A stretch of 64,000 bases of DNA from Candidatus Krumholzibacteriia bacterium. GTDB taxonomy: Bacteria; Krumholzibacteriota; Krumholzibacteriia; WVZY01; JAKEHA01. The position numbers were made by a program, and so were the translations under genes. The stretch lies in the NCBI GenBank assembly GCA_029865265.1, contig JAOUHG010000002.1:98357-162356 (forward strand), written 5' to 3'. The notes under the pieces were generated by a model that worked only from the letters and a program-made list of their open reading frames with translations, made no database searches and was not told the origin of the DNA. Numbering within the stretch: position 1 is the first letter of the stretch; the number at the start of each line of letters is the position of its first letter. Of this stretch, positions 826 to 28,500 are shown piece after piece.

Positions 826-1608
826 TCAGGTCCGGAACACCTTGTTCAAGAAGGTCACGTAGTCAACTTCCACCGTGCCGCAGACGTGATTCTTCTGCCG
901 CTTCACCCACGGTTCGGCCTCCACGAAGGTGACGCCACCGTCAAACGTGGCACCGCTGCTGGCCAGCAGGTTGAACACGATCTCGAGCGCCGGCGGCGGT
1001 TCCGCCACACGCAGCAGGGGCACCTGGCCCCGGGCGGAAGGCGTGGCACCTTCCAGCATCCAGTACTTGTCCTTGCCCTCTTCGACGCGCACCAGCTTGG
1101 CCGAGAGCTGGTACTTGCGCTCCGGCTCTTTCTCGAGGCCAACGGTGTCGTTGTATTTGAAGCGCGTCATTTCAGCGGGCGTATGATCCTCAGACGCAAA
1201 GCCGGCGGCATTGGTCATGCGCGGCAACGGAATGGAACGTCCCTGCGGAATGGGAACGGTGTCGTTGCCCGCCACCACTTCCATGCACCGGAAATGCGGC
1301 GCAGGGCTGAACTTCTTGACGACGTTGAACGTGATCGTCCCCGGATCGTAGGACTTGATCTTGTCGGCGAGACTCGCGCCGGTGATGAACGTGGAAACGT
1401 TCCCCTGGCGGACGAGCACATAGTCGCCGGCTGACTCGACGATCTCGGGTGACACCAGCTTGTACTTGAAGCCCTTGCTCAGAACGGGCGGGCCGTACAG
1501 CGCCTGGCGCAGCGAAATCTGGGCGTACGGATCTACGGGCGCCTTCTCGCCGCAGCCCGCGAGAACAAAGACACCCAGCAGGCACAACGCAACAAACTTG
1601 AATTTCAT
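826..1608 (-). CDS. Hypothetical lipoprotein, 260 aa
   Basis: Internal ATG at 1608 gives MKFKFVALCLLGVFVLAGCGE, a signal peptide with an LAGC lipobox. The upstream part of the track ORF is Arg/Gly-rich GC junk. No recognisable catalytic motif. Confidence 0.5.
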   Translation of the reverse strand: MKFKFVALCLLGVFVLAGCGEKAPVDPYAQISLRQALYGPPVLSKGFKYKLVSPEIVESAGDYVLVRQGNVSTFITGASLADKIKSYDPGTITFNVVKKFSPAPHFRCMEVVAGNDTVPIPQGRSIPLPRMTNAAGFASEDHTPAEMTRFKYNDTVGLEKEPERKYQLSAKLVRVEEGKDKYWMLEGATPSARGQVPLLRVAEPPPALEIVFNLLASSGATFDGGVTFVEAEPWVKRQKNHVCGTVEVDYVTFLNKVFRT

Positions 1609-1745: not shown

Positions 1746-3146
1746 TCAACGGCCTTTTACCGCACCGGCCGGCGCCCCGCCCGGGCCATGGTCGATCCGC
1801 TTCCAGAACGCCTCCACCTCGAAGTCCGGGCTCTGGTCCTCGTTGTGGCAGTCCCGGCACAGGCTGCGTGCGTCTTCCACGCCGGGTCTGACGTCCGGGT
1901 CCCGCACGTGACCGGCCGCATTGCCGTGGCAGGACTCGCACTGCACGCCGGTGAGGTGGGGGGTGGCAACGACGTTCTCGAAGCCCCCGTTCTTATAGAA
2001 GCCCACCGAGTGGCACGGTGTGCAATCCCGGTCGAACTCGCGCGAGAGGTCGGTGAGCGTTTCCCAGGCGTGCGCGTGCCGTGTGTCCGACCACGCGGCG
2101 TGGATGTCCTCGTGGCACTCCCGGCACGCCTCCGCGCCCTGGAAACGGCTGTGGGAGAGGTTGCGCACGTTGGTGACACCGGTGGGGAGCGTCGCGCGCT
2201 CCTTGGCGGCGATGTCGAAGTCGTAGGCCTGGAACAGGCGGCCGATGGCCTCGTCGTCCGGAAAGCGCTCGTCCATGGGAACCACCGCATCCTGCATGCT
2301 GGCGACGCGCCCGTCGGGCCCCAGCGTGGCGTAGGCCACGCCCATGTACAGCCCGCGCGCCGCGAGCTCGAGCAGGTAGGCGTCGCCGAAACGGCGCAAC
2401 TGGCGCATGGGCTTCCCGTCGTGCCCGTGGAACACGGCGTCCACCCCGCGCAGCAATTCCGTGAAGCGTTGCGCCTCCCCGCGCGGCATGTGCGCCAGCA
2501 CCACCACCAGGTCCACATCGCCGCGCATCCCGTCCACCACCGGCTGCACGGCCGCCAGCGGGTCGCGAATGTCCAGCGATCCCGCCGCCACCTGCGGCGG
2601 CAGCGCAATGGCGGGGCTCATCACGCCCGCAATGCCCACGCGCAGGCCGGAGGGCAGCGTAACCACGCGCGACGCCGGAAAGATCAACGTATCCCCGACC
2701 GCGTCGTACAGATTGGCCGCCACGATGGGCAGCCGCGCGTCGCGGGAACGCCGCAGGATGAAGTCCAGTCCGAAACCGAGTTCGTCCTCGCCGATCACCA
2801 CAGCGTGATAGCCCATGAGCGCCATGGACTTGAGGGTGACGTCGGCCTTCTCGACGCCGTAGTTGATGCTCGCGCCGAAAAAATCGCCCGCATCCACCAG
2901 CAGCATGTCTCCGGTGGTGTCCGCGACGGCCTTCAGGAAGGTGGCACGTCGTCCCAACCCGCCCAGGTCGTGTTCGGAGCACCCGCAGGAGCGGATCTCG
3001 CCCCACAGGTCGTTGGAGTAGGCAATGGCGAGACGCTTCGGCGCCGTCTTTTCCTCGCCGCAACCACCCAGCGCCAGCACCGCGAGCAGCATCGCGATTG
3101 CGCCAGGGCCACGACGGCCGAGAATCTGTCCAAATGAAAGGGTCAT
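1746..3146 (-). CDS. Lipoprotein: UshA/5'-nucleotidase-like metallophosphoesterase-fold domain with non-canonical metal ligands, fused to a C-terminal tetraheme c-type cytochrome
   Basis: ATG at 3146 gives MTLSFGQ...LALGGCGEE (lipobox). The N-terminal half has calcineurin-like blocks (VDAGDFFG, LPIVAANLY), but the DxH and GNHE His/Asn ligands are replaced (AYSNDLWGE, IGEDELG). The C-terminal ~150 aa carry four CxxCH heme motifs (CRECH, CTPCH, CESCH, CRDCH), resembling the cytochrome c554/c552 family. Confidence 0.65.
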   Translation of the reverse strand: MTLSFGQILGRRGPGAIAMLLAVLALGGCGEEKTAPKRLAIAYSNDLWGEIRSCGCSEHDLGGLGRRATFLKAVADTTGDMLLVDAGDFFGASINYGVEKADVTLKSMALMGYHAVVIGEDELGFGLDFILRRSRDARLPIVAANLYDAVGDTLIFPASRVVTLPSGLRVGIAGVMSPAIALPPQVAAGSLDIRDPLAAVQPVVDGMRGDVDLVVVLAHMPRGEAQRFTELLRGVDAVFHGHDGKPMRQLRRFGDAYLLELAARGLYMGVAYATLGPDGRVASMQDAVVPMDERFPDDEAIGRLFQAYDFDIAAKERATLPTGVTNVRNLSHSRFQGAEACRECHEDIHAAWSDTRHAHAWETLTDLSREFDRDCTPCHSVGFYKNGGFENVVATPHLTGVQCESCHGNAAGHVRDPDVRPGVEDARSLCRDCHNEDQSPDFEVEAFWKRIDHGPGGAPAGAVKGR

Positions 3147-3352
3147 ACATTTACCTGTGGCGACCACGGATCTCCATGTTAAGCGAACGCCGGTGGTTTA
3201 CGCCAGCACTGCCCCCGCACAAGATGGCGCTTGACGCAACTCCGGGCACGATGCTCATTGAAAGCACGAAGCCAAATTGCTTCGCGATCCCACCCCTCGT
3301 TTCGTCACACCGGTGAGCCCCACCGACTCCGGGATGTATCCAGGAGGATGGC

Positions 3353-5833
3353 ATGAAACGAGGTTCGCTGGCGCTCGTTGCGCCGTTTCTGTTTGCAATC
3401 CCCACTGTCGCCGCGGCCCGTCACAGCTATACACCACCGGCGTCCAAGACCGGCGGTGAGCCGCAGCGTGTGTTCGTGCTCGACGGGTCCACCGTCCATA
3501 ACGTGGGCGAACTGCAGATGCACCTGGGCAACTGGGGGTTGTTCGGCTCCCTGCCCGGTGCCGGGGCCGCGTATTCCGAGGCCCCCTCGGCGCAATGGCC
3601 TGCGGGCAGCGGCACCGAGTACCTGTTCGGCGCCGGCCTGTGGGTGGGCGCGCTCAAGAACGGCATCCCCGCCGTGTCCACCACCCTGGGCTTCGATCCC
3701 AACGGCATCGTCTTCGAATTCGATCCCGGCCGCGACACCCGCGACATCATGTACCGCGCCGCGGAAGGCACCCGCGGCGGCGCCCGCGCGCCCGCCGAGG
3801 CCGACGACGACGGCGACGGCGCGGTGGATGAAGACCCGCTCAACGGCTATGACGACGACGGCGACGGCGCCATCGACGAGGACTTCGCCGCCATCTCCAA
3901 CCAGATGTTCGCCTGCCGCTATGCCGACTATTACCCGGAAACCGCGCGCGCGTTCCCGCAGCACAACCCGCTCGGGCTGGAGGTGCGGCAGCAGAGCTTC
4001 CAGTGGGAGGAAGACCGCTACGACGATTTCGTGGGCATCGAGTTTCACATCACAAACGCCGGCAGCAACGTGCTGGAAGACGTTTACGTGGGTTTCTTCG
4101 CCGACGGCGACGCCGGCCAGCGCACCACTGACCGCTACTATGAAGACGACGCCACCGGCCGCAGTTTCGTCCCGGTGGAATGCACCGACCTTGGACCCGT
4201 CTCCATGGACATCGCCTACGTCTTCGACGCCGACGGCGACGAGGGCCGCACGCTGGGTTACCTGGGCATCATGTTCCTGGGTCATACCGTGGACCCCACC
4301 GGCGAAACCGCGCCGCGGCGTGTGGGCATCAGCACCTACGCCAACTTCTCGGGCAGCGCGTCGTTCGAGGACGGCGGCGATCCCACCAACGACTTCGAGC
4401 GCTACGAACTGCTGTCATCGAAGGTGATCGAGCGCAACGCGCAGGTACCGCGCGACTACCGCATGCTGATGGCGGCCGGCCCCTTCAAGGAGCTGCTGCC
4501 CGGCAGCACGCTCGTGTTCCAGACCGCCTTCGTCATCGGCGAACGCTATGCCGGCATGGTGGCCAACGCGGCCAGCGCGCAGCTCACCTACGAGGGCGCC
4601 TGGTTCGACCAGGACAACGACGACCTCACCGGCGCCACCGGTCGCGAGACACCGGTGGTCGGCCCCGCCATGGGGGTGGCCATCGACACCTGCCGCTTCG
4701 CCCAGCAACCGCCGGTCAACGTTCCGCGCGGGCAGACGGTGTGGATCAACAACGACTGCGCGCGCGAGGAGATCTTCCGCGCCGGCTGCGGATACACGCT
4801 GGAGGACTCGCTCAAGTTCATGACCGGCGTGGACGGCCAGGAGACACACATCTACTGGCTGGTGGGAACCGCGCCGCCGCCGCCGACGCTTCGCATCGAC
4901 GCCGCCGCGCGCGACGGTGTCGCCATCTACTGGGACAACTTCAGCGAGGTCACGCCCGACGTAAAGACGCTCAGGCTGGACTTCGAGGGCTATCGTGTAT
5001 TCCGGGCGGACAACTGGACGCGGCCGACGGGAACATCCGCGCGAACCGGGCCGCCGTCCAACTTGTGGAAGCTGCTCCGTGCCATGGACGTGGTAAACGG
5101 GCTGGGGGATGATACGGGGCTCAACCCGTTCCGCTACGAACCGCTCGCCCACATCCTCGAGCCGGCCCAGAAGCGCGACATGATCGAGAGCATGAAGCAG
5201 TACCTCACCGAGTACCCCGGCGCGGACCCGCCCTGCCCGCAGGGCGTAACCCCCCAGGTGTGCGACACGCTGGAGGCGCTGGCGGCATACGAACTGGGGA
5301 TGATGGAGCGCGGCCGCCAGTACTACCGCTACATCGACCGCAGCATGCACCGTGGCCGCCCTTACTTCTACGCGGTGACCGCTTCCGATCACGGCGAAGA
5401 CGAAGACACCCGCGCCCTCACCCCGGGAAAGATGGGCGACCCCGCCGCGAACTTCGTGTTCGTCGAACCGCAACAACCCTCGCAGGCGGACTACGCCTAC
5501 CGCGACGAGGCGGTGTATGTGGTCCCCAACCCGGCCACCCGGGAGTCGATGCAGCCCTGGGCGCTCGGTCCCAACAACGACGACCCCACCGGCATCAAGG
5601 TGGAGTTCCGCAACCTCCCCGCGGACCGCGGCACGATCCGCATCTTCACCCTGGCCGGGGACCTGGTGGAGGAGATCGGGTTCGACGGGCGCGGGGGGGT
5701 GGGAACGGCCGAATGGGACCTGGTGTCGCGCAATGGCCAGGACGTCGCGAGCGGCGTCTATCTATTTTCCGTGGAGACCGATTTCAACGCCGCCTTCGCG
5801 CGCAAAGTCGGCAAGTTCGTGGTGATCCGCTAG
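3353..5833 (+). CDS. Secreted 826-aa protein with Asp-rich calcium-binding repeats (thrombospondin type-3-like), an FN3-like region and a T9SS type-A C-terminal sorting domain; paralog A
   Basis: AGGAGG SD 6 nt upstream. Signal peptide MKRGSLALVAPFLFAIPTVAAA. Repeats of the form DDDGDGAVDEDPLNGYDDDGDGAIDED. The last ~90 aa (VYVVPNPA...IRIFTLAGDLV...WDLVSRNGQDVASGVYLF...KVGKFVVIR) fit the Por_Secre_tail/FlgD-Ig-like pattern. Confidence 0.7.
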   Translation: MKRGSLALVAPFLFAIPTVAAARHSYTPPASKTGGEPQRVFVLDGSTVHNVGELQMHLGNWGLFGSLPGAGAAYSEAPSAQWPAGSGTEYLFGAGLWVGALKNGIPAVSTTLGFDPNGIVFEFDPGRDTRDIMYRAAEGTRGGARAPAEADDDGDGAVDEDPLNGYDDDGDGAIDEDFAAISNQMFACRYADYYPETARAFPQHNPLGLEVRQQSFQWEEDRYDDFVGIEFHITNAGSNVLEDVYVGFFADGDAGQRTTDRYYEDDATGRSFVPVECTDLGPVSMDIAYVFDADGDEGRTLGYLGIMFLGHTVDPTGETAPRRVGISTYANFSGSASFEDGGDPTNDFERYELLSSKVIERNAQVPRDYRMLMAAGPFKELLPGSTLVFQTAFVIGERYAGMVANAASAQLTYEGAWFDQDNDDLTGATGRETPVVGPAMGVAIDTCRFAQQPPVNVPRGQTVWINNDCAREEIFRAGCGYTLEDSLKFMTGVDGQETHIYWLVGTAPPPPTLRIDAAARDGVAIYWDNFSEVTPDVKTLRLDFEGYRVFRADNWTRPTGTSARTGPPSNLWKLLRAMDVVNGLGDDTGLNPFRYEPLAHILEPAQKRDMIESMKQYLTEYPGADPPCPQGVTPQVCDTLEALAAYELGMMERGRQYYRYIDRSMHRGRPYFYAVTASDHGEDEDTRALTPGKMGDPAANFVFVEPQQPSQADYAYRDEAVYVVPNPATRESMQPWALGPNNDDPTGIKVEFRNLPADRGTIRIFTLAGDLVEEIGFDGRGGVGTAEWDLVSRNGQDVASGVYLFSVETDFNAAFARKVGKFVVIR

Positions 5834-5886: not shown

Positions 5887-6078
5887 AGAGACCGCTCCCC
5901 GGCCCCGGGCCGGCCTCCCCCCCGAGCGCTGTATCCGCAATTGTGCCTTGACAGTCCGCCCGCCGCATGGCACCTTTTCCAGTGATCCCACCACTCGTAT
6001 CGGCCGTAGGCGGCCGGCCAACAGCCTGTTCCCAGTACGCATGTTACGGTCTTCCGGACTGATAGGAAGGATACCGGA

Positions 6079-8562
6079 ATGAGAAAGCGCAATGTGTGGT
6101 CCGCCGGCCTGTTCATCGTGGCCGCCGTACTTCCGTCCCTCGTGTTCGCGCGCATCGACACCCCCAGCGAGGTCACCAAGAAGGGCCAGACCGGCCCCAA
6201 CCGGATCTTTGTGCTGGATGGCTCCAACGTTCACAACGTCGGCGAGTTGCAGATGCACGTCGGCAACTGGGGACAGTTCGGCTCCTGGCCGGGCTCGGGG
6301 CTGACCTTCTCCGAGGCTCCTTCCGCGCAGTGGCCCGCGGGCAGCGGTGTCGAGTACCTGTTCGTGGCCGGCATGTGGGTGGGCGCGTTGAAGGCGGGCG
6401 TCCCGGCGGTGTCCACCGCCGCGTATGCGTTCGAATTCCGCCCGACCCAGGACCCCCTCGACATCATGTATCGCGCGGCCGAGGGTGCCCGGGGCGGCGC
6501 GCGCGCGCCATCCGACAACCGCGACGACGACAAGGACGGCGAGGTGGACGAGGACTGGCTCAACGGGCGCGACGACGACGGCGACGGTCAGATCGACGAG
6601 GACTTCGCGGCCGTCTCCAAGCAGATGTTCGTGTGCCAGTACACCGACGACCAGCCCTCCGCCACGCAGATCTATCCGCAGCACAACCCGCTGAACCTCC
6701 ACGTGCGCCAGGAGAGCTACCAGTGGGAGGAAGACCGCTTCGACGACTTTATCGGCGCCCAGTTCATCATCACCAACCAGGGCAACAACGTCCTCGAGGA
6801 CGTGTACATCGGCTTCTTCGCCGACGGTGACGCCGGTCCGCGTGACGTGGACAACTACTGGGAAGACGACGCCACCGGCCGCCGCGCCGTGCCCGTGCTG
6901 TGCACCGACCTCGGCCCGGTGTCGATGGACATCGCGTTCGTGTTCGACGCCGACGGCGACAACGGCCGCACGCTCGGCTACCTGGGGATCATGTTCCTCG
7001 ACCACACCATCGACCCCAACGGCGAGTTCGCACCGCGCCGCGTGGGCATCAGCACCTACGCCAACTTCTCGGGCAGCGCCTCGTTCGAAGACGGTGGCGA
7101 TCCCACCAACGACTTCGAGCGCTACGAGCTGCTCTCGTCGAAGATCATCGAGCGCGACGCGCAGGTGCCGCGCGACTACCGCATGCTCATGGCGGCGGGG
7201 CCGTTCAAGGAGCTGCTGCCCGGCAGCACGCTCGTGTTCCAGACCGCCTTCGTGATCGGAAACCGCCTGGACGGGATGATCGCCAACGGTGCCAACGCGC
7301 AGCTCACCTTCGAGGGCGCATGGTTCAACCTGCTCGGTGACGACCCGGTGCCGACCGGATACGCGGGGCGCGAAACGCCCGTACCGGGACCGGCCAGCGG
7401 TATCGCCGTCGATACCTGTCGCTATCAGAACGCGCCGCCCATCAACGTTCCCCGCGGCCAGACGGTCTGGATCAACAACGACTGCGCCGAAGAGCAGCTC
7501 TTCCAGACCGCCTGCGGTTACGACCCGGCCAAGGAAGACACACTCAAGTTCATGACCGGTGTCGGCGGCAACGAGACCCAGATATTCTGGATCGTGGGCA
7601 CGGCACCGCCGCCGCCGTTTCTGCGCATCGACGACACGAGCACCGACGGCGTCGCTATCTACTGGGACAACTTCAGCGAGACCAAGCCGGACATCAAGAC
7701 GCTGAAGGACGACTTCGAGGGCTACCGGCTGTTCCGCGCCGACAACTGGACGCGGCCGACCGGCACCTCGGCTTCCAACGGCCCGCCCAAGGAGTTGTGG
7801 AAATTGCTGGTGGAGATGGACCTGATCAACAACTTCGGCGAGGACACAGGGCTCGACCGCTACCGTTACGAGCCGCTGACCAGCATTCTCTCCCCGTCGG
7901 TCAAGCGGGACATGATCAACTCGATCAAGCAGTACCTGACCGAGTACCCGGGTTCCAACCCGCCGTGCCCGCAGGGCGTCACCTCGGAAGTGTGCGACAC
8001 GCTGGGTGCGCTGGCCGCGTGGGAACTGGGAATCACCGACAAGGGGCGGCAGTACTACCGCTACGTCGACCGCAGCATGCACCGCGGGCGGCCGTACTTC
8101 TACGCGGTGACCGCGGGTGACCACGCCATCGCTTCCGACGGGACCTTCTTCGAGGGACTCGTGGGTGATCCGTCATCGAACTTCGTGTTCATCGAGCCGG
8201 GCGGACCCTCGCAGGCGGATTATGCCTACAACGAAGACGATGTCTACGTGGTACCCAACCCAGCCACCACGGAGTCCATGCAGCCGTGGACGCTGGGCCC
8301 CAACAACGACGATCCCACCGGTATCAAGGTGGAGTTCCGCAACCTGCCCGCCGATCAGGGCACCATCCGCATCTTCACCCTCGCGGGTGACCTGGTGGAG
8401 GAGCTCTACTTCGACGGCCGCACCGGCAACGGTACGGTGGAGTGGGATCTCGTCAGCCGCAACGGCCAGGACATCACCAGCGGCGTTTACCTGTTCGCCA
8501 TCGACACCGATACCAACGAGGCCTACAGGCGCAAGATCGGCAAGTTCGTCGTCATTCGGTAG
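6079..8562 (+). CDS. Paralog B of the 826-aa secreted Ca-binding-repeat / T9SS-tail protein (827 aa)
   Basis: AGGAAGGA SD. Signal peptide MRKRNVWSAGLFIVAAVLPSLVFA. Same architecture as 3353..5833 with long identical peptide stretches (e.g. GISTYANFSGSASFEDGGDPTNDFERYELLSSK) and near-identical nucleotide tracts. Ends ...GKFVVIR. Confidence 0.7.
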   Translation: MRKRNVWSAGLFIVAAVLPSLVFARIDTPSEVTKKGQTGPNRIFVLDGSNVHNVGELQMHVGNWGQFGSWPGSGLTFSEAPSAQWPAGSGVEYLFVAGMWVGALKAGVPAVSTAAYAFEFRPTQDPLDIMYRAAEGARGGARAPSDNRDDDKDGEVDEDWLNGRDDDGDGQIDEDFAAVSKQMFVCQYTDDQPSATQIYPQHNPLNLHVRQESYQWEEDRFDDFIGAQFIITNQGNNVLEDVYIGFFADGDAGPRDVDNYWEDDATGRRAVPVLCTDLGPVSMDIAFVFDADGDNGRTLGYLGIMFLDHTIDPNGEFAPRRVGISTYANFSGSASFEDGGDPTNDFERYELLSSKIIERDAQVPRDYRMLMAAGPFKELLPGSTLVFQTAFVIGNRLDGMIANGANAQLTFEGAWFNLLGDDPVPTGYAGRETPVPGPASGIAVDTCRYQNAPPINVPRGQTVWINNDCAEEQLFQTACGYDPAKEDTLKFMTGVGGNETQIFWIVGTAPPPPFLRIDDTSTDGVAIYWDNFSETKPDIKTLKDDFEGYRLFRADNWTRPTGTSASNGPPKELWKLLVEMDLINNFGEDTGLDRYRYEPLTSILSPSVKRDMINSIKQYLTEYPGSNPPCPQGVTSEVCDTLGALAAWELGITDKGRQYYRYVDRSMHRGRPYFYAVTAGDHAIASDGTFFEGLVGDPSSNFVFIEPGGPSQADYAYNEDDVYVVPNPATTESMQPWTLGPNNDDPTGIKVEFRNLPADQGTIRIFTLAGDLVEELYFDGRTGNGTVEWDLVSRNGQDITSGVYLFAIDTDTNEAYRRKIGKFVVIR

Positions 8563-10040: not shown

Positions 10041-11372
<1,332 letters not shown>

Positions 11373-11558
11373 CGGACTGGACCACCCGGTGCACGGGGTG
11401 CCCCTGCGCGGTCACCCGCCGCAGACGGTCCGGGCCACGCCGGCCCGCGGGTTCTTGCAACATATTGCCGCATTTTCACATACGTCACCGGCCGTCCGGG
11501 CGCGCGGCTGGCACCCGGCTTGCGGTATCCGGCCCGGGACACGGTCCCGGAGACGACC

Positions 11559-12839
11559 ATGAAAGCATTTCTCATATTCCTGTCGATCTGCGCCGCATCT
11601 CTGGTGACGGCGCCGGTACCCACCACCGCCCAGGGCAACATGGACTCGGTGCGCGGCTTCATCGAACGCAACGCCGAACTCCTCGGCGTGGCCACCGCCG
11701 TGGTGCAGGAGACCAACAGCATCCGCGCCCGCGGTCTGCTGGAGACCGCGACCACCCTGCACAAGCAGTCGGTGGGTCTGCTCGAGCAGAATTCCAACGC
11801 GCAGGCGGGACGGGTGGCGGTCCGCGCGCGCGAGGTCATTCAGCAGACCATCTCGGTGGCCAAACGCGACGCCCGCATCGAAGAACAGGCCGTGCGCACC
11901 ATGGAGCGCGCCACCACCCGCCTCGAACAGGCACGCATCGTGTTCGAAGAAGACGGGAACGACAAGATCGTCGCGCGCCGCCTCATCCTCGAATCGGCCG
12001 ACAACCTCCGGCGGGCACGCGAGCAGGTGCAGCAGCACATGTTCGAAACGTCGCTGCGCCTGGCCGAATCCTCGCTGGCCCTGTCCAACCGCGCCATCCG
12101 CATGCTACGGCGCGACGGTCTGGGCCCGGACGTGGCCGAAGAGATAGACCGCACGCAGAGCATCATCGAGCGCGCGGGCGAATCGCGCGCGTCGCACGAC
12201 CCGGCGTTGAACCGGTTGCTGGAGCAGGCGAACGAGTTGCAGCGGCGCGCGGTACGCAGCGCGGAGCGTGGCGACGCCGCCATCGCCGTGGAGCAGACCC
12301 GGGGTGCGCGCAACCTGGCCCTGCGCGCCATGCGTGCGGGCGGCGGCGCCGGCGCGTCCGACGAGGAACAGGCGGTGCGCGCGGTGGCACTCACCGACGC
12401 CGTTCTGGAGGGCGCGCGTGACGTGCTGGGTGAGTCCGCTCACGACGGTGCGACGCGCAGGGTGGAAGAAGCTGCACGCCAGCAGGACGACGCACGCCGC
12501 GCCCTCGGCGACGGCGACTACAAGCGCGCCCTTGCCCTGTCCACCAGCGCCCGCGAGGCGGTGCGTGCCGCGCTGCGCGGCATGGACGTGGCGGTGGACC
12601 CCGCGTCCGTCGAATCCGCCCTGGCGCGCACCGACGATGCCATCACAAAACTCGGCGATACCATCGCCGGCAGCGACCGTGCCACCGCGCGTGAGTTCTT
12701 CGAACGCGCGACCTCCCGCCAGCGCGAGGCGCGGGCCGCACTCGGCGACGGTGACCCCCGGCGCGCGCTCGCGCTCACCCGCGTGGCACACAACCTGGCC
12801 CGCAGCGGACTGTCCGCCATGAAAGATGCGGAGAACTGA
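11559..12839 (+). CDS. Secreted alpha-helical repeat protein of unknown function
   Basis: ATG at 11559 gives MKAFLIFLSICAASLVTAPVPTTAQG (signal peptide). Ala/Arg/Glu-rich with repeated ALGDGDxxRALAL segments. No known catalytic motif. Confidence 0.5.
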   Translation: MKAFLIFLSICAASLVTAPVPTTAQGNMDSVRGFIERNAELLGVATAVVQETNSIRARGLLETATTLHKQSVGLLEQNSNAQAGRVAVRAREVIQQTISVAKRDARIEEQAVRTMERATTRLEQARIVFEEDGNDKIVARRLILESADNLRRAREQVQQHMFETSLRLAESSLALSNRAIRMLRRDGLGPDVAEEIDRTQSIIERAGESRASHDPALNRLLEQANELQRRAVRSAERGDAAIAVEQTRGARNLALRAMRAGGGAGASDEEQAVRAVALTDAVLEGARDVLGESAHDGATRRVEEAARQQDDARRALGDGDYKRALALSTSAREAVRAALRGMDVAVDPASVESALARTDDAITKLGDTIAGSDRATAREFFERATSRQREARAALGDGDPRRALALTRVAHNLARSGLSAMKDAEN

Positions 12840-17652: not shown

Positions 17653-18230
17653 CTATTTGACCAGCAGCATCTTGCGCGTGTCGGTGAAACCACCCGCCAC
17701 CATGCGGTAGAAGTAGACGCCGGAACTGACCGGCGCACCCGCGTCGTTGCGCCCATCCCAACGTGACTGGTAGCGGCCCGCGGCCTTGTGCTCGTTGACC
17801 AGCGTGCGCACCCGCGCACCCCGCACGTCGTAGATCACCAGACTCACCGCGTTGCGGATGCCGCCCGGCACCCAGTAGTCGATGCTCGTCACGGGGTTGA
17901 ACGGGTTGGGGTGGTTCTGGCCCAGCTTCGCGATCGTCACCGGTACCAGCACCGCCAGCGTCTCGTTGACCACACCGCCCTCTCCCTCCAGCCGGTAGAC
18001 GTAGCGCGAGCCCATCTCCACGCCCCGGTCCACCACCCGCACCTCACCGTCCATGGACAGGCCCACCGCGCTCGCCACCCGCCGGTACGGGCCAGGCGCA
18101 TCGTCCTTCAGCTCCGCCCGGCTCACGTTGAACAACCCGCCGCTCGCGCTCAGCGGAACCGTCCACACCAGTTCCATGCCCCCGCCCAGCGCCGCGTAGC
18201 GGAACGAGGCACCACCCACCGGGGTGGGAA
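17653..18230 (-). repeat. Copy 1 of a ~580-nt near-identical 3' gene segment shared by the three giant genes
   Basis: Encoded peptide PTPVGGASFRYAALGGGMELVWTVPLSASGGLFNVSRAELKD...VNETLAVLVPVTIAKLGQN.PNPFNPVT...YDVRGARVRTLV is almost invariant in all three proteins. The spurious small ORFs in the track over these regions are also near-identical, which shows nucleotide-level identity. Confidence 0.6.
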
Positions 18231-21200
18231 CCACGAAGCCGTGGGCCCCGTTGTTGTGCGCGTTGGCGTGGAAGCGCGGCCACGGCGCGGTGGCCGGGTT
18301 CCAGCTACCGGAGAAATCCCACACGTAGAGGCTCTTGTCCCAGCCCGCGGCGACGAGATCAATGTCGCCATCCTGATCCACGTCGTTGAGTTCGGGTACG
18401 CCGCGCATCGCGTCGTCGGTCTTGAGCGGGAAGCCGGCGATCAACTGGCCGCTCACGTTCCACGCGTACAGGTACTGGGTCTCGCTGCCGATCACGATGT
18501 CGGGATTCCCGTCCCCGTCGACGTCGGCGATGACCGGCGACGACTCGGTGTAGGTGGTGGTGGTGTACTGCCTGGGCCACCCCGCCAGCACGACACCATT
18601 GCTCTGCGTGCCGTAGATGTTGCCACTGCCGCGCGCCACGAAGATCTCCAGCTTGCCGTCGCCGGTGACATTGCCGATCGCGGGCGACGAGGCGAAGAAG
18701 GGGTTCCAGGGGGCATTGCTGAAGTACTGCGACATCTGCAGCGTCGCATCATGGTTGATCACGAACAGGTTACCGGCCGCCGTGTTGACCACAATTTCGA
18801 GGTCGCCGTTGTTGTCAACGTCACCAATCGCCGGACTTCCCGCCACGTCGGAAGCAAGCGCGTACGGCCACCCCGGGCTCACGGAACCGTCTTCGTTGAA
18901 TACGTAGAGCTGGTCGCCCTGCGAACCCACGATCAGCTCTTCCATGTTGTCGCCATCGATGTCCGCCATGGCTGGCGTGGAATAGTTGAATGTGCAATTG
19001 GGCATGCGGAAGAACACGCCCTGCGTGAGCGGATTGAAGTCGCCGTCGATGAATTCGCTGCCGTCGGCATTCCAGGCGTAGATCACACCCTTCTCGTCCA
19101 CCGCGATCACTTCCAGCAGATTGTCCCCGTCGAGATCGCCCGCCGCCACCCCGGCGCGGACGAAGTTCTCCGCGCTCCGGGGCCAGCCGGGCAGCAGGGC
19201 CCCCTGATGGTTGAACACGTACACCTGCTTGAGGTCGCGCGAGGCTGCGATGACCTCCAGGCCGGGCGCCGCGTCCAGGCGCGCCAGCGCCGCGTGTGCC
19301 ACAAACGATCCCCCGACCGGGGACAGCACGCCCCAGGTCTGGGCGTCGCCGTCTCCGTTGATCACTTCACTCCCGTCGCTGTTGAAGGCGTAAACCTTGT
19401 CGGCGCACACCACGATTTCGAGATCGCCGTCGCCGTCGATATCGCCCACCACCGGCGAGGAACTGGTTTCGGAGCCCAGCGGAAGGGGGAACCCGGAGAC
19501 CTGCTGCGGGTTCGTGCTGCCCGAGGCCACGGCCGACGGCGCGCTCTCGTTGCCGGAGGTATCGATGGTGGTGGCCCTGAAGTAGTACAGGGAATTGGAC
19601 GTCAGTCCCCGGTCGAGAAACACGGTGTGCGACACCGGGTCGACCGTGGACTTCACCCACGGCCCTACCGGCGTCGTGGACCGATAGACGTGGTAGGTTT
19701 CGGCATCACCGCTCACACTCGCCGACCAGAAGACCTGCAGACGGTCCGGCCCCAGACTGGGGTCGATGACCAGCCCCACAGGGGCAACCGGCGGACGCAA
19801 CTCGACGATGTCCTGGTACGAGCGCCCGTAGGTGTCGACGATCTCGACCAGCAGGCGGTGCTCGCTGGCGACACTGGTCTCGATCATCTCGAACCCGGCG
19901 GTGTTCTCCGCCTCGGCCATGGGCGCCACGGCCGCATAGCTGTCGTTAGCGCCGATCAGCGTGAAACCGGCGTCCAGATCGGTGATGGTCGCGGACCCGC
20001 CCGGAAAGGCACCGGTGCCGAAGTTCTTGACCTTGTAGAACAGGTGGAACTGCTCGCCGGCATCGACAATGCCGTCGCCGTTGCCGTTGGCCACGTCATC
20101 GATGCGCAACGTCACCTGGAACAGCCCGGGCTGGTGAACTTCCTTCTTGAATGTGTCACGCCACGCCTCGCCGCCGTCGTTCTTGATGACCAGCGTGAAG
20201 GGCACCGGGTAGGCGTCCGGGTATGCGTCGTCGAAGGTGACGCGCACGCCGCCGCCCGCAACCACCGTTGCCCCGCTGGCGATGACACCCGCCGCGGCCG
20301 TGCTGTCGTCCAGCACGACACCCGGGTCGCTGCTGCGCAGGGTAACGGTGACGTCACCGGTGGACACCGGGCCGGTGTTCTTGAGGGACAGCGCCAGGTC
20401 GACGGTTTCTCCACCCTCGATGACACCGTTGCCGTTACCGGCGGTGCCGCCCGTGTTGTCGTCGTCTACCGTCATGCCCGCAATCTGCACGTATGCTGCC
20501 GCGGCCGTCACGGTGATGGTGCCGTCGTAGCGCCGCTGATTGTGACCGGTAACCACGACGTCGATAGCGCCGGGAGACCGGGCGCGGAACGGCAGCGTGG
20601 CCTGTCCGCTCATGTCCGTGGTGGCCACCGCGTAGTCGTCGCCGCCTTTGGTCAGGCAGACGGTGGCACCCTCCACCGGATTGCCACCACTCATCACCGT
20701 GACCAGGATGTTCTGCTTGCCGGCGGACACGCTGGCGGCGTGGGTCACATCCGTCGTCGCGGGACGGTGCGTCCACATGGGCAGCTCGGGGTCGGCGAGG
20801 AGCGTGTAGATGTAGTGCGTCCACAGGTCGACGTTGTCACCGAGCAGGGCCAGCGGTGTGCGCAGCGCGCGCGAGCGGGCGAAGGTCTCGCCGATGTTCG
20901 TAACCGCCGAATCAAACGCCAGTTTGTAGTACTCGTTCATGTACGCCGACGAGGCGTTCGGGAAGGCGCTCTCGTTGGCGCCCACCACCGACACCGCGCC
21001 CCCGTTGGGATTGCGCAGGAAGTGCTCCGCCAGGCAGTAGTACGTGTACGATGCCCCGGTGCAGTTCAGAAAGTAGAGGCACGATAGACGGTTTCCGTTG
21101 ATGAGCGCGTCCGCATCGGAGTTCACGATGCTGGCGTCGGACACCGACATGTTGAAGCGATAGCCGTGCCCGATATGCACCACGTGGTTGAACCCGGTAT

Positions 21201-22611
21201 TGAGCGAGTCCAGAACCGCCGCCCGGTTCTCGTCCACCGAGCCCGGGAAGTACTCCTGCGTCTCGTACATGCGCACGACATCGAGTCCCGGGGCGGTCAG
21301 ATGGTTGTTGTAGATGGTCTCGGTGAGATCGGCACCGTTGACGGTGATCGCCTGGGGTGGCGACCAGTTCAGCGGGAAAAGCACCTCGCCCAGCAGGAGC
21401 ACGCGATGGCCGAACGAGAGGTCGGCCGGAGTCTCGTAGGCGATGACCTTGCCGGTCATCATGGCCACTTCCGCCACCGACGAGGTCGGCAAGCGGCCCA
21501 CGTACACCTCGGCGTAGAGGTCGGCTCCGTCTATCGGCGTGCCCTCCCCGAAAATGGCGTCGCCGTCCGCGTTCCACGAACCATCCAGGCAACCGAAGTA
21601 CATGTCCACCGGCAGGAAACGCCCGCCGTCGTAGAAGCCGCTCCACGCCAGGCGCGGCGCGATCTCGCCGGTGTCTCCGCCCAGCAGCAGATAGGTGATC
21701 CCCCACTTTGCATACGCGTCCTTGACGAAGTTGCGGATGGTCTCCTGCGGGTCCGAGCCGTTGCGATAGTTGGCCTCGATCCACTCCGTGGTGCGCACCA
21801 CCGTCGGGACACCCTTGCCCGTCTTGAAGTCCGCCAGCGCCTGGTAGGCGGCCGCCAGCGAATCGGGGGTTACGATTACGTAATCGACCGCGCTGCCCTC
21901 CAGCGAGGGAAAGGTCGAGGGGGCGAAGCCACCGTCCGGCGCGGGCACGTCGACGGCACCAAAGCTGTAACCCGCCGCGTCGGCGCTGTTGATCACGAGC
22001 CGCGAAAGTTCTCCCTGGATGCGCTGCATGGCACGCGGACGGCGCCGCACCATGTGGACGGGCGCCGGTTGCGCGGATGGCGTGGTCTCGATTTCGAGCG
22101 TGACGGCCGGGTAGGCAACCAGATCCTCTCCGGACAACGACAGCGGATACACCGCGAAACTGGCGATGGTGTAACCATGCAGGGTTCCCACACCAAGCAG
22201 ACGCGCGCGCTCGGCGGGAAACGCCCCGCCTGACGCCAGCGACACCAGCGCGGTCGATTGCCCCGCGACGCCGTCTTCGGTGCGCATCGCATCCGCGAGC
22301 ACCGGGCTCACGCGGGTGGCGATGACGGTGGTGCCGCGTGCATCTGCGGCGAACGACGCCAGCTCGTGCCCCTGGGGCAACAGCACGCTCACGATGCGGT
22401 ACGGCAGCGCCGGGCGCCCCTCGTCCGCGAGGGTGGAATAGCCGTCGGCGCGCACCGAGACCGCGTGCCCCGCGGCGGTACCGCGCACGTCCACGTCGGC
22501 GGGGTCGAGCACCAGTTGGTAGGAGAGGGTCGTAGCCTGCGCAGAAAGCACGCCGGCTGCGAGCAGGAGTCCGGTGGCCAGAACGGGAATTGCAACTCGG
22601 AATCGTTTCAT
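17653..22611 (-). CDS. Giant secreted protein 1 (~1652 aa): peptidase C25 (gingipain-like) domain + FN3 + FG-GAP/VCBS beta-propeller repeats + conserved pre-tail module + T9SS type-A sorting domain
   Basis: ATG at 22611 gives MKRFRVAIPVLATGLLLAAGVLSAQA (signal peptide), with a GGAGGTGA SD. C25 entry block DYVIVTPDSLAAAYQALADFKTGKGVPTVVRTTEWI. His/Cys dyad context HVVHIGHG ... YFLNCTGAS. Repeated DxDxDGxxExxxG FG-GAP blades. Ends ...KLGQNHPNPFNPVTSIDYW...IYDVRGARVRTLV...SGVYFYRMVAGGF..RKMLLVK (Por_Secre_tail). Confidence 0.8.
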   Translation of the reverse strand: MKRFRVAIPVLATGLLLAAGVLSAQATTLSYQLVLDPADVDVRGTAAGHAVSVRADGYSTLADEGRPALPYRIVSVLLPQGHELASFAADARGTTVIATRVSPVLADAMRTEDGVAGQSTALVSLASGGAFPAERARLLGVGTLHGYTIASFAVYPLSLSGEDLVAYPAVTLEIETTPSAQPAPVHMVRRRPRAMQRIQGELSRLVINSADAAGYSFGAVDVPAPDGGFAPSTFPSLEGSAVDYVIVTPDSLAAAYQALADFKTGKGVPTVVRTTEWIEANYRNGSDPQETIRNFVKDAYAKWGITYLLLGGDTGEIAPRLAWSGFYDGGRFLPVDMYFGCLDGSWNADGDAIFGEGTPIDGADLYAEVYVGRLPTSSVAEVAMMTGKVIAYETPADLSFGHRVLLLGEVLFPLNWSPPQAITVNGADLTETIYNNHLTAPGLDVVRMYETQEYFPGSVDENRAAVLDSLNTGFNHVVHIGHGYRFNMSVSDASIVNSDADALINGNRLSCLYFLNCTGASYTYYCLAEHFLRNPNGGAVSVVGANESAFPNASSAYMNEYYKLAFDSAVTNIGETFARSRALRTPLALLGDNVDLWTHYIYTLLADPELPMWTHRPATTDVTHAASVSAGKQNILVTVMSGGNPVEGATVCLTKGGDDYAVATTDMSGQATLPFRARSPGAIDVVVTGHNQRRYDGTITVTAAAAYVQIAGMTVDDDNTGGTAGNGNGVIEGGETVDLALSLKNTGPVSTGDVTVTLRSSDPGVVLDDSTAAAGVIASGATVVAGGGVRVTFDDAYPDAYPVPFTLVIKNDGGEAWRDTFKKEVHQPGLFQVTLRIDDVANGNGDGIVDAGEQFHLFYKVKNFGTGAFPGGSATITDLDAGFTLIGANDSYAAVAPMAEAENTAGFEMIETSVASEHRLLVEIVDTYGRSYQDIVELRPPVAPVGLVIDPSLGPDRLQVFWSASVSGDAETYHVYRSTTPVGPWVKSTVDPVSHTVFLDRGLTSNSLYYFRATTIDTSGNESAPSAVASGSTNPQQVSGFPLPLGSETSSSPVVGDIDGDGDLEIVVCADKVYAFNSDGSEVINGDGDAQTWGVLSPVGGSFVAHAALARLDAAPGLEVIAASRDLKQVYVFNHQGALLPGWPRSAENFVRAGVAAGDLDGDNLLEVIAVDEKGVIYAWNADGSEFIDGDFNPLTQGVFFRMPNCTFNYSTPAMADIDGDNMEELIVGSQGDQLYVFNEDGSVSPGWPYALASDVAGSPAIGDVDNNGDLEIVVNTAAGNLFVINHDATLQMSQYFSNAPWNPFFASSPAIGNVTGDGKLEIFVARGSGNIYGTQSNGVVLAGWPRQYTTTTYTESSPVIADVDGDGNPDIVIGSETQYLYAWNVSGQLIAGFPLKTDDAMRGVPELNDVDQDGDIDLVAAGWDKSLYVWDFSGSWNPATAPWPRFHANAHNNGAHGFVVPTPVGGASFRYAALGGGMELVWTVPLSASGGLFNVSRAELKDDAPGPYRRVASAVGLSMDGEVRVVDRGVEMGSRYVYRLEGEGGVVNETLAVLVPVTIAKLGQNHPNPFNPVTSIDYWVPGGIRNAVSLVIYDVRGARVRTLVNEHKAAGRYQSRWDGRNDAGAPVSSGVYFYRMVAGGFTDTRKMLLVK

Positions 22612-22655
22612 GAGACCGTCACCTCCGCGTCGGGTCGCGGTTGGGAATACGAACG

Positions 22656-23233
22656 TTATTTGAGGAGAACCATTCTGCGCGCATCCTGGAAGGAGCCCGC
22701 GGACATGCGGTAGAAATAAACTCCGGAACCGACCGGCGCACCCGCGTCGTTGCGCCCGTCCCACTGCGCCGCGTAACGGCCCGCGGCCTTCTCCCCGTCG
22801 ACCAGCGTGCGCACCCGCGCACCCCGGACGTCGTAGATCACCAGACTCACCGCATTGCGGATGCCGCCCGGAACCCAGTACTCGATTGTTGTCACCGGGT
22901 TGAACGGGTTGGGATAGTTCTGGCCCAGCTTCGCGATCGTCACCGGTACCAGCACCGCCAGCGTCTCGTTGACCACACCGCCCTCGCCCTCCAGCCGGTA
23001 GACGTAGCGCGAGCCCATCTCCACGCCCCGGTCCACCACCCGCACCTCACCGTCCATGGACAGGCCCACCGCGCTCGCCACCCGCCGGTACGGGCCAGGC
23101 ACATCGTCCTTCAGTTCCGCCCGGCTCACGTTGAACAACCCGCCGCTCGCGCTCAGGGGAACCGTCCACACCAGTTCCATGCCCCCGCCCAGCGCCGCGT
23201 AGCGGAACGAGGCGCCACCCACCGGAGTGGGCA
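22656..23233 (-). repeat. Copy 2 of the ~580-nt conserved 3' segment
   Basis: As for copy 1. Identity ends at the stop codon and the downstream flank diverges. Confidence 0.6.
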
Positions 23234-27587: not shown

Positions 27588-27842
27588 CAGAGACAACCTC
27601 CGGTACGCGCGGTCAGTCGTTCGCCGGTAGGAGCGACGGCGATCTTCGGACCATCTGCTGGTCTTGCCGCGCGTCCGTGGCGCCGCGGCTATGTCAAATC
27701 ACGGAGAAATGGAAAACCGTTGTTGGTAGCAGATCGCGTTTCGCTTGCGCTCCCGCGGTTGGTTGTTGAACCGCCCAATGATGAGTACATCATTATATCG
27801 CAACGGGATCGGCCCGTCAATGGCAGAGTCTGCGCGACGACA

Positions 27843-27893
27843 GCCATCCGGGATCTGCTGGTGTGTCGAGGAGGTATGCTCGTCCCGGATGGC
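27843..27893 (-). terminator. GC hairpin (11-bp stem GCCATCCGGGA/TCCCGGATGGC, 29-nt loop) ~30 nt downstream of the giant gene 3 stop; possible terminator
   Basis: Inverted repeat read from the sequence in the 326-nt gap between giant genes 3 and 2. No U-tract. Confidence 0.3.
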
Positions 27894-27922
27894 CTGCCGC
27901 GCAGAAATTCTTGCCCGTTTCT

Positions 27923-28500
27923 CTATTTCAGAAGGACCATCCTGCGGGTGTTCTCGAAACCACCCGCCACCATGCGGTAGAAGTAGACGCCGGAACTGAC
28001 GGGCGCACCCGCGTCGTTGCGCCCGTCCCACTGCGCCGCGTAACGGCCCGCGGCTTTCTCCCTGTCGACCAGCGTGCGCACCCGCGCACCCCGGACGTCG
28101 TAGATCACCAGGCTCACCCGGTTGCGGCTTCCGCCCGGAACCCAGTACTCGATTGTTGTCACCGGGTTGAACGGGTTGGGATAGTTCTGGCCCAGCTTCG
28201 CGATCGTCACCGGTACCAGCACCGCCAGCGTCTCGTTGACCACACCGCCCTCTCCCTCCAGCCGGTAGACGTAGCGCGAGCCCATCTCCACACCCCGGTC
28301 CACCACCCGCACCTCACCGTCCATGGACAGACCCACCGCGCTCGCCACCCGCCGGTACGGGCCCGGCTCGCCGTCCTTCAGCTCCGCCCGGCTCACGTTG
28401 AACAACCCGCCGCTCGCGCTCAGCGGAACCGTCCACACCAGCTCCATGCCACCGCCCAGCGCCGCGTAGCGGAACGAGGCGCCACCCACCGGTGTGGGCA
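27923..28500 (-). repeat. Copy 3 of the ~580-nt conserved 3' segment
   Basis: As for copy 1. Confidence 0.6.

Follow-up and report, generated by a model that had tools for sequence, protein, structure and literature searches.

What might a protein do in which a phosphatase-type domain with altered metal-ligand motifs is joined to four predicted c-type hemes? This question is raised by a gene in a 64,000-nucleotide stretch of DNA from a Candidatus Krumholzibacteriia bacterium (contig JAOUHG010000002.1, positions 98,357 to 162,356), which we refer to as the window. An earlier note on this DNA had described the gene product as a lipoprotein in which a degenerate 5′-nucleotidase-like metallophosphatase is fused to a tetraheme cytochrome c, and had proposed a redox or electron-transfer role for a possibly non-hydrolytic fold. 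Our analysis draws attention to a pair of cysteines, C54 and C56, on a loop that directly follows the first metal-ligand motif. The reading we favor, with a probability of roughly 0.55, is that the protein is a membrane-anchored thiol-disulfide oxidoreductase of the cell envelope, built on a metallophosphatase scaffold and wired to electron transport through its four c-type hemes.

The lipoprotein, its metal site and its hemes

The gene is a single uninterrupted open reading frame (ORF) for 466 amino acids (aa) (Table 1), and the same frame remains open further 5′ to a GTG at position 3167. Public metagenome assemblies contain an identical protein, P0001, the start of which is called there at Met19. 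The N-terminus, MTLSFGQILGRRGPGAIAMLLAVLALGGC, consists of a charged n-region, a hydrophobic core and the lipobox L-G-G-C29. C29 is invariant in 87 aligned homologs, and a pattern of n-region, h-region and [AG]C is common to homologs. There are 11 cysteines in the whole protein, namely the lipid anchor C29, the pair C54 and C56, and eight that are predicted to bind heme. The four CxxCH motifs lie in the same ORF as the phosphatase-type domain, and exactly four such motifs are found in all 120 listed homologs. A frameshift or separate-ORF artefact is excluded by the single ORF, the identical database protein and this constant motif count.

Residues ~36 to 300 are related to UshA, CD73, SoxB and YfkN-type nucleotidases, as judged by NCBIfam and PDB sequence searches with E values of 1e-9 to 1e-14. 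Within the N-terminal ~320 aa, the NCBIfam models for UshA and SoxB match with E values of 3.7e-12 and 9.3e-14, and the PDB sequences of 3ivd and CD73 match with 1.1e-11 and 5e-11, respectively. The bit scores are far under the family cutoffs (45.8 bits versus 600 for UshA; 50.6 bits versus 550 for SoxB, TIGR04486), and a Pfam scan of the whole protein returned neither a Metallophos nor a 5_nucleotid_C match, with Cytochrome_C554 as the sole domain detected. An AlphaFold2 model computed from 87 sequences reaches a predicted local distance difference test score (pLDDT) of 87.7 and a predicted template modeling score (pTM) of 0.82, the latter of which suggests a defined two-domain arrangement. 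The modeled N-domain superposes on 5′-nucleotidase N-domains (Foldseek E ~2e-23 over ~310 columns), wherein 3ive, CD73 and UshA are matched with E values of 1e-20 to 2e-23, as is expected for the N-domain fold of these enzymes.

To locate the metal ligands, we took their positions from the CD73 and 3ivd alignments and counted the corresponding columns in 111 full-length close homologs, with ligands allotted to the M1 and M2 metals by the structural scheme of UshA and CD73. In the PDB sequence alignments, SNDLWGE falls on the TNDxH motif and GEDELG falls on GNHEFD. Four ligands are present. D46, the equivalent of CD73 D36, is Asp in 103 of the 111 sequences; D88, the bridging Asp of the GD motif (CD73 D85), is retained in 101; and the M2 ligands H219 and H242 (CD73 H220 and H243) are retained in 109 and 101. 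The other positions are substituted. The DxH His column (CD73 H38) is occupied by W48 and is variable, with His in only 7 of the 111; the Asn of GNHE (CD73 N117) is replaced by E120, where Glu is fixed (108 of 111); and the last M1 ligand (Q254 in UshA) corresponds to G244. The catalytic His of the GNH[ED] motif (CD73 H118) is likewise missing, since D121 stands at this variable column (within the family, K in 44, N in 23 and D in 14). These column counts rule out both a loss of all ligands and a retention of all ligands. Judged by the alignments, the M1 half-site is lost together with the general acid/base and the M2 half-site survives with an Asn-to-Glu change, such that the metal site is remodeled rather than erased.

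The C-terminal part of the protein is a Cytochrome_C554 domain in place of the nucleotide-binding domain (5_nucleotid_C) of the nucleotidases. At this protein composition, 0.009 CxxCH motifs would be expected, and the chance of encountering at least four is ~2.5e-10. Residues 340 to 408 match Pfam Cytochrome_C554 (PF13435) with an E value of 1.8e-13 and a score of 51.6 bits against a cutoff of 20.8, which makes the domain a member of this family. The Nitrosomonas cytochrome c554 (PDB 1bvb) matches at 8.6e-11, with heme motifs 1 to 3 aligned; the window protein reads DRDCTPCHSVGFYKNGGF...LTGVQCESCHG where the Nitrosomonas protein reads DKDCVGCHVDGFGQKGGY...LTGVGCESCHG. Outside the CxxCH motifs, three histidines (H357, H413 and H453) are conserved for four predicted hemes. 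The column of the predicted distal ligand H453 holds a Cys in Planctomycetota forms. The c554 heme equivalent to heme 2 is five-coordinate. The tetraheme domain follows a long helix (residues 299 to 318) and, to judge by the architecture and by how far the Foldseek alignment reaches, takes the place of the UshA C-domain.

Most of the architecture described in the earlier note is borne out by these results, including the predicted lipoprotein nature, the UshA/SoxB-type calcineurin fold, the c554-like arrangement of the four CxxCH motifs and their place in one ORF with the phosphatase-type domain, and the coordinates given for the gene proved exact. Its statement that the canonical metal ligands are substituted holds for W48, E120, D121 and G244 and does not hold for D46, D88, H219 and H242. 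Not all seven metallophosphatase ligands are conserved, and the word “degenerate” is nevertheless too strong, given that the losses are limited to the M1 half-site and the catalytic His and that the M2 ligands are kept in 101 to 109 of the 111 close homologs.

The C54-G-C56 loop and its selenocysteine-containing relatives

Four positions of the loop that follows motif I, G49, C54, G55 and C56, are invariant in all 111 close homologs. More distant relatives were found by scanning one genome per GTDB species and reading the DNA directly. In full-length relatives with 24 to 31% identity, an in-frame TGA is located exactly at the C56 codon, to give P-C-G-U, and the reading frame runs on through all four CxxCH motifs. 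These TGA carriers come from Acidobacteriota of the Polarisedimenticolia (L027, L028, L029, L031 and L049) and from Planctomycetota (L044 to L047). Tandem paralogs in Planctomycetota combine a selenocysteine (Sec) form with PCGU (L044 and L047, 6001-8874) and a neighboring Cys form with VCGC in its place (L048 and L050, 4647-7356). Such an exchange of Cys and Sec at one position is a hallmark of catalytic redox cysteines. A GC-rich hairpin ~22 nucleotides 3′ of the UGA is common to the acidobacterial loci and is a candidate Sec insertion sequence (SECIS) element; its z-scores are unremarkable in these loci, such that it is supportive only, and the same check revealed no post-UGA hairpin in the planctomycete loci. 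The acidobacterial Sec forms additionally lack D46, H219 and H242, yet keep C-G-U.

The best NCBIfam match of the window protein is NF041198, “UshA-like (seleno)protein” (UshA_like_PCGU), with 270.7 bits and an E value of 2.2e-80, which narrowly misses the curated cutoff of 275 bits. When the two halves of the protein were scanned separately, they matched positions 4 to 262 (139.6 bits) and 347 to 517 (134.1 bits) of the 519 positions of the model, and ~80 linker positions are missing from the window protein. Both distinguishing features of the family are present, namely C-G-U/C on the loop that follows motif I, and a UshA-like N-domain and a C-terminus with four CxxCH motifs in one polypeptide. 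The score of the Sec form L027 is 342.7 bits (with TGA read as Cys), those of the other Sec forms are 240 to 247 bits (L047, 240; L028, 247), and that of P0061, a member of the group we term type A, is 275.6 bits. The cutoff therefore leaves out genuine Sec forms and most type A members and, because it splits both groups, the window protein lies at the family boundary. The exclusion of most type A members also explains why NCBI names close homologs merely “multiheme c-type cytochrome.” Based on these scores, the window protein belongs to the catalogued NF041198, or CxU UshA-like, family as a Cys form that scores at its boundary.

Homologs with the same fusion thus exist, and because NF041198 spans both halves, the tetraheme fusion is an already curated architecture rather than an unprecedented one. 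The redox role proposed in the earlier note is right in direction and incomplete, in that the decisive C54-G-C56 loop is absent from it. The CxU UshA-like selenoprotein has been catalogued since 2008 with no assigned function (Zhang & Gladyshev, PMC2398784), and is also listed without a function in PMC9312934 and PMC13188914. A literature search combining metallophosphoesterase and tetraheme found no papers, and one combining Krumholzibacteria and cytochrome returned only metagenome and ecology surveys.

Residues 30 to 330, the N-domain by itself, were used as the query in an exhaustive search of sequences clustered at 50% identity. Matches with E ≤ 1e-3 numbered 8,615 clusters, and 2,149 passed E ≤ 1e-10, with canonical nucleotidases included in both figures. 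Among the best 150 representatives, 114 (about three quarters) carry C-x-C at the columns of C54 and C56, with G (69), N (12) or D (9) as the most frequent middle residues, and a few have C-x-x-C. A further 17 of the best 150 start after the loop, several of which are ~370 to 410 aa long and carry four hemes, the pattern expected if the gene caller had stopped at a Sec codon. The 18 that lack the loop resemble canonical nucleotidases, with DxH and GNHE present.

The columns of the metal site covary with the cysteine pair. Across the 114 C-x-C representatives, the DxH His is found in 12, D46 in 41 and the catalytic His in none, and the GNHE Asn column is never Asn, being Glu in 63 and Asp in 34 (97 of 114). 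Meanwhile, D88 is kept in 92, H219 in 87, H242 in 91 and N145 in 107. Throughout the family, gain of the Cys pair is thus coupled to the disappearance of M1 and of hydrolytic catalysis. Of the 149 representatives scored, 148 have a heme count of 0 or 4 (the exceptions stated are one with 1 and one with 3), such that the tetraheme domain behaves as a discrete add-on wire. The heme-less forms include lipoproteins of ~325 aa from other Krumholzibacteriota, which we call type C (L032 to L043 and L053; for example, L040 at 5923-6894). These carry a nearly identical loop, SSDxLGKIRSCGC, together with the M2 ligands, and the SoxB profile score of L040 is 99 bits.

Additional evidence comes from twenty multidomain representatives that were scanned against Pfam and inspected for motifs. 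In P0222, a DsbA/thioredoxin-fold domain follows the C-x-C domain and scores above cutoff with both DSBA (49.4 bits) and Thioredoxin_4 (44.5 bits). The active sites in fusions of this class are CPYC (P0222 and P0198), CPHC (P0154), CIHC (P0158), CPDC (P0240) and CAEC with CPHC (P0266), and the ~1,200-aa proteins P0153, P0154 and P0158 end in a second C-x-C domain plus a c554-like tetraheme domain. A second class places an N-terminal AhpC-TSA/Redoxin (TlpA/ResA-like) domain (50 to 67 bits) before the C-x-C domain, with CxxC kept in P0165 (CKPC) and P0276 (CEPC) and absent from P0208. Other fusions join DUF1573 Ig-like repeats to a C-x-C domain and a tetraheme domain. Because thioredoxin-fold fusions of two classes, the exchange of Cys and Sec, and the invariant cysteines converge, the loop is probably a catalytic dithiol or selenothiol redox center. 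The UshA-type fold is very probably repurposed and non-hydrolytic, as had been suspected, and a redox role is its best reading.

Proposed role and competing explanations

In the thiol-disulfide oxidoreductase that we favor, the β1-α1 loop of an M1-less UshA fold presents the C54-G-C56 pair, which would cycle between a dithiol and a disulfide. If this loop comes close to the hemes, then the c554-like tetraheme domain could relay electrons singly between the C-x-C pair and a pool of periplasmic or respiratory carriers, with a flow that might run in either direction. Likely clients would be DsbA-like or TlpA/ResA-like envelope thiol-redox proteins, or a small sulfur or selenium substrate.

Several observations weigh against this proposal. 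The C-x-C loop is modeled at lower confidence (pLDDT ~67), and pure thiol-disulfide chemistry leaves unexplained why the M2 set (D88, E120, H219 and H242) is kept in types A and C. A heme domain is absent from approximately 40 of the 114 C-x-C representatives, which indicates that the hemes are not intrinsic to C-x-C function. Moreover, the fusion partners are of both an oxidative type (DsbA-like) and a reductive type (ResA-like) and so indicate no single electron direction, and the genomic context described below gives no clear client.

The retained M2 ligands also form the basis of an alternative in which the protein is a redox metalloenzyme. C54 and C56 (or Sec) would replace the M1 ligands and bind a metal with D46 and D88, beside an M2 metal held by D88, E120, H219 and H242, and this thiolate or selenolate (di)metal center would convert a small inorganic substrate (such as a sulfur, selenium or arsenic oxyanion) while the hemes supply or remove electrons. 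That the M2 ligands are strongly conserved, both in types A and C and across most of the C-x-C representatives, is consistent with such a center, as is the charged ligand that is added when Asn is changed to Glu or Asp. Formate dehydrogenase and [NiFeSe] hydrogenase each bind a metal through Sec, and SoxB, a sulfur-cycle enzyme, is among the better characterized-family matches, both of the window protein and of L040. However, the acidobacterial Sec forms keep C-G-U without D46, H219 and H242, the spacing varies between C-x-C and C-x-x-C with a variable middle residue, and the conserved context holds no transporter or metal-insertion accessory genes. The recurrent thioredoxin-fold CxxC fusions also favor dithiol exchange over small-molecule metallo-catalysis, and we consider a metalloenzyme to be rather unlikely. 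It is less probable still that catalysis is centered on heme, with C54 and C56 (or Sec) serving as the distal ligand or nucleophile at a five-coordinate heme 2, as in TsdA, SoxAX and octaheme tetrathionate reductase, to form a heme-based sulfur-compound oxidoreductase. No need for an external ligand is known for the five-coordinate heme of c554 itself. The heme domain is missing not only from the ~40 C-x-C representatives noted above but also from the type C paralogs with an identical KIRSCGC loop, and these absences have to be set against the three conserved non-CxxCH histidines for four hemes, the very c554-like motif of heme 2, the Cys at column 453 in Planctomycetota forms and the Sec-containing multiheme enzymes listed in PMC13188914.

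The protein might still be a hydrolase, specifically a one-metal SoxB/UshA-like phosphoesterase or thiosulfohydrolase with a heme domain that serves an unrelated electron-transfer or sensing role. Its fold is intact with four of seven ligands retained, the SoxB and nucleotidase profiles match weakly, and the JGI annotation of homologs is 2′,3′-cyclic-nucleotide 2′-phosphodiesterase. We nevertheless regard hydrolysis as quite improbable, given that the GNHE catalytic His is absent from all 114 C-x-C representatives and the M1 His from most C-x-C proteins, that the 5′-nucleotidase C-terminal substrate-binding domain and a detectable Pfam Metallophos match are lacking, and that the scores against all characterized families, as given above for UshA and SoxB, are far under cutoff. 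Finally, the remodeled domain could be a non-catalytic scaffold, or a module that binds, for instance, a metal ion or the lipoprotein encoded by the adjoining gene, on an ordinary electron-transfer cytochrome. Although this lipoprotein neighbor is co-conserved, relatives bear at the C56 position a costly and typically catalytic Sec, and both cysteines are absolutely invariant, which makes a non-catalytic role very improbable.

The envelope thiol-disulfide oxidoreductase that we favor over these alternatives could be one instance of something broader. It is conceivable, and we offer this only tentatively, that the C-x-C/C-x-U UshA-like domain constitutes a large unrecognized class of redox modules of the envelope, each with a dithiol or selenothiol in place of one metal of the calcineurin-fold dimetal center. 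The tetraheme forms would then be a heme-c-linked disulfide relay, an alternative to quinone-linked DsbB/VKOR or thioredoxin-linked DsbD/CcdA, through which DsbA-like and ResA-like proteins of the periplasm are oxidized or reduced in Krumholzibacteriota/Latescibacterota, Acidobacteriota, Planctomycetota and other groups. The C-x-C UshA-like family is large, is spread across many poorly studied phyla, and includes selenoproteins, with no assigned function. If coupling of C-x-C to the tetraheme domain is true, it would represent a new link of envelope protein-thiol redox homeostasis to respiration and a clear case of a hydrolytic dimetal fold that has evolved into a redox module. Candidate functional residues are C54, C56, D88, E120, H219, H242 and heme 2, and the natural fusions nominate clients. 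Annotations on close homologs such as “cyclic-nucleotide phosphodiesterase” or a generic “multiheme cytochrome” are misleading or uninformative.

Genomic setting and likeness to known systems

Table 1. Positions of the gene, its domains and key residues, and of adjoining genes in the window
Feature	Position	Strand	Details
Complete gene, UshA-like C-x-C/tetraheme lipoprotein	1746..3146	(-)	ATG at 3146; stop 1746-1748; 466 codons plus stop
Lipoprotein signal peptide, residues 1-29	3060..3146	(-)	Lipobox LGGC at 3060-3071; C29, predicted lipidated Cys
5′-Nucleotidase (UshA/CD73)-type calcineurin-fold domain, residues 36-320	2187..3041	(-)	Includes inter-domain helix 299-318 (2193-2252)
Motif I remnant, D46-L-W48	3003..3011	(-)	
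Family-defining loop, G49-E-I-R-S-C54-G-C56	2979..3002	(-)	C54 at 2985-2987; C56 at 2979-2981
D88, bridging Asp of GD motif	2883..2885	(-)	
E120-D121, in place of Asn-His of GNHE	2784..2789	(-)	
H219, M2 ligand	2490..2492	(-)	
H242, M2 ligand	2421..2423	(-)	
Cytochrome c554-like tetraheme domain, residues 334-453	1788..2147	(-)	Pfam, PDB and NF041198 matches
Heme motif 1, CRECH (341-345)	2112..2126	(-)	
Heme motif 2, CTPCH (375-379)	2010..2024	(-)	c554-like context DRDCTPCH..GF..GGF
Heme motif 3, CESCH (403-407)	1926..1940	(-)	
Heme motif 4, CRDCH (430-434)	1845..1859	(-)	
260-aa lipoprotein, downstream of the gene	826..1608	(-)	AlphaFold2 pLDDT 87.4; tandem OB-like fold
Paralogous 826/827-aa secreted proteins	3353-5833, 6079-8562	(+)	

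Downstream of the gene lies a gene for a 260-aa lipoprotein with a modeled tandem oligonucleotide/oligosaccharide-binding (OB)-like fold. The fold search returned only weak tandem OB-fold matches (template modeling scores of 0.2 to 0.26), from which no family could be assigned and no function inferred. This lipoprotein is co-conserved beside the heme-fused type A genes, and homologs with 24 to 29% identity also follow heme-less type C C-x-C genes, such that the lipoprotein is a possible partner of the C-x-C protein. In the other direction, the gene is transcribed divergently from two paralogous secreted proteins of 826 and 827 aa, after which comes a σ54-type histidine kinase/response regulator pair. 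Apart from a C-terminal tail that resembles FlgD_ig, these secreted proteins matched nothing in Pfam, NCBIfam or the PDB. They are always divergently upstream in type A loci and are more conserved across loci than the C-x-C protein (58 to 85% versus 44 to 78% identity). The arrangement of lipoprotein, 826-aa proteins and kinase/regulator pair recurs in most type A loci, with one subclade lacking the lipoprotein and the pair. In these loci, synteny extends equally to the housekeeping genes alr, PBP1 and tyrS, such that part of it reflects shared ancestry.

Type C genes are flanked by genes for a tetratricopeptide repeat lipoprotein, a σ54 kinase/regulator pair and a homolog of the OB-fold lipoprotein, and no cytochrome gene adjoins the heme-less type C genes. 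Loci of the Sec type are situated among gcvTHP, ruvX and yceG genes in Acidobacteriota, the tandem Sec and Cys pair of Planctomycetota directly follows genes for an extracytoplasmic function σ factor and a zf-HC2 anti-σ factor, and the stand-alone P0164 lies between a radical S-adenosylmethionine gene and a DUF2339 gene. Gene neighborhood was considered as a functional clue and set aside, as no partner recurs across phyla. Because the housekeeping synteny is equal and the contexts of the Sec type are unrelated, context does not identify a client or substrate.

Other features of the window were noted. The divergent intergenic region (3147-3352) contains no convincing σ54 -24/-12 element. A perfect match to the σ54 -24/-12 consensus occurs just once in the window, as TGGCACCCGGCTTGC at 11509-11523 (+), and is located just after the gene for the σ54-activator response regulator (10041-11372) and before an ORF of ~430 aa (11520-12839) without a Pfam match. 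From this position, that ORF, and not the cytochrome gene, may be directly targeted by the regulator. Three tandem giant proteins (1,646 to 1,715 aa; 17653-33070, (-)) carry a gingipain-like Peptidase_C25 domain, FG-GAP repeats and a FlgD_ig-like tail. This tail is common to the giant and the 826-aa proteins and might be a sorting signal specific to the lineage. Apart from the gene studied here, CxxCH motifs occur in a single ORF of the window, which encodes a di-heme cytochrome c peroxidase (CCP_MauG, 2e-53) at 61264-62361 (-).

Among known families, the window protein is closest to NF041198, with which it shares the two-module architecture and a C-G-[C/U] loop at the same position. It differs in having S-C-G-C rather than P-C-G-U, in being a lipoprotein of a Krumholzibacteria/Latescibacterota/Chitinivibrionia clade and, relative to the acidobacterial Sec forms, in keeping D46, H219 and H242. 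With E. coli UshA, human CD73 and E. coli c4898 (3ivd), it has in common the GD motif, the GG-x-[AG]RR-AT motif, two His ligands and the inter-domain helix, at 15 to 23% identity, whereas it bears an extra C-x-C loop and a tetraheme domain instead of the nucleotide-binding C-domain. SoxB (TIGR04486), one of the best characterized-family matches, belongs to the UshA superfamily and works in the periplasm on a cysteine-bound sulfur species. Unlike the window protein, SoxB has a di-manganese site and neither hemes nor a C-x-C loop. The Nitrosomonas europaea c554 (1bvb/1ft5; PF13435) also has four CxxCH motifs and three distal His, with strong local likeness around hemes 1 to 3, but it is a free-standing carrier of 211 aa, whereas its counterpart in the window protein, of ~130 aa, is joined to an enzyme-like domain; the score against the c554 equivalog NF043010 is 39.6, with a cutoff of 400.

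What is new here is the signature of M1 loss and M2 retention tied to the C-x-C loop, along with the breadth of the superfamily, the fusions with thioredoxin-fold and tetraheme domains, and the conserved OB-fold lipoprotein neighbor. Analogues without kinship include the quinone-linked DsbB/VKOR, DsbD/CcdA, the C-G-C shuttle arm of Erv2 and the G-C-U-G tail of thioredoxin reductase. By analogy with these systems, the loop would be a close Cys-Cys or Cys-Sec pair that serves as a mobile two-electron shuttle tied to a one-electron or cofactor redox chain. The fold is unrelated to theirs, and c-type hemes, rather than a quinone or flavin, would be the redox link in the window protein.

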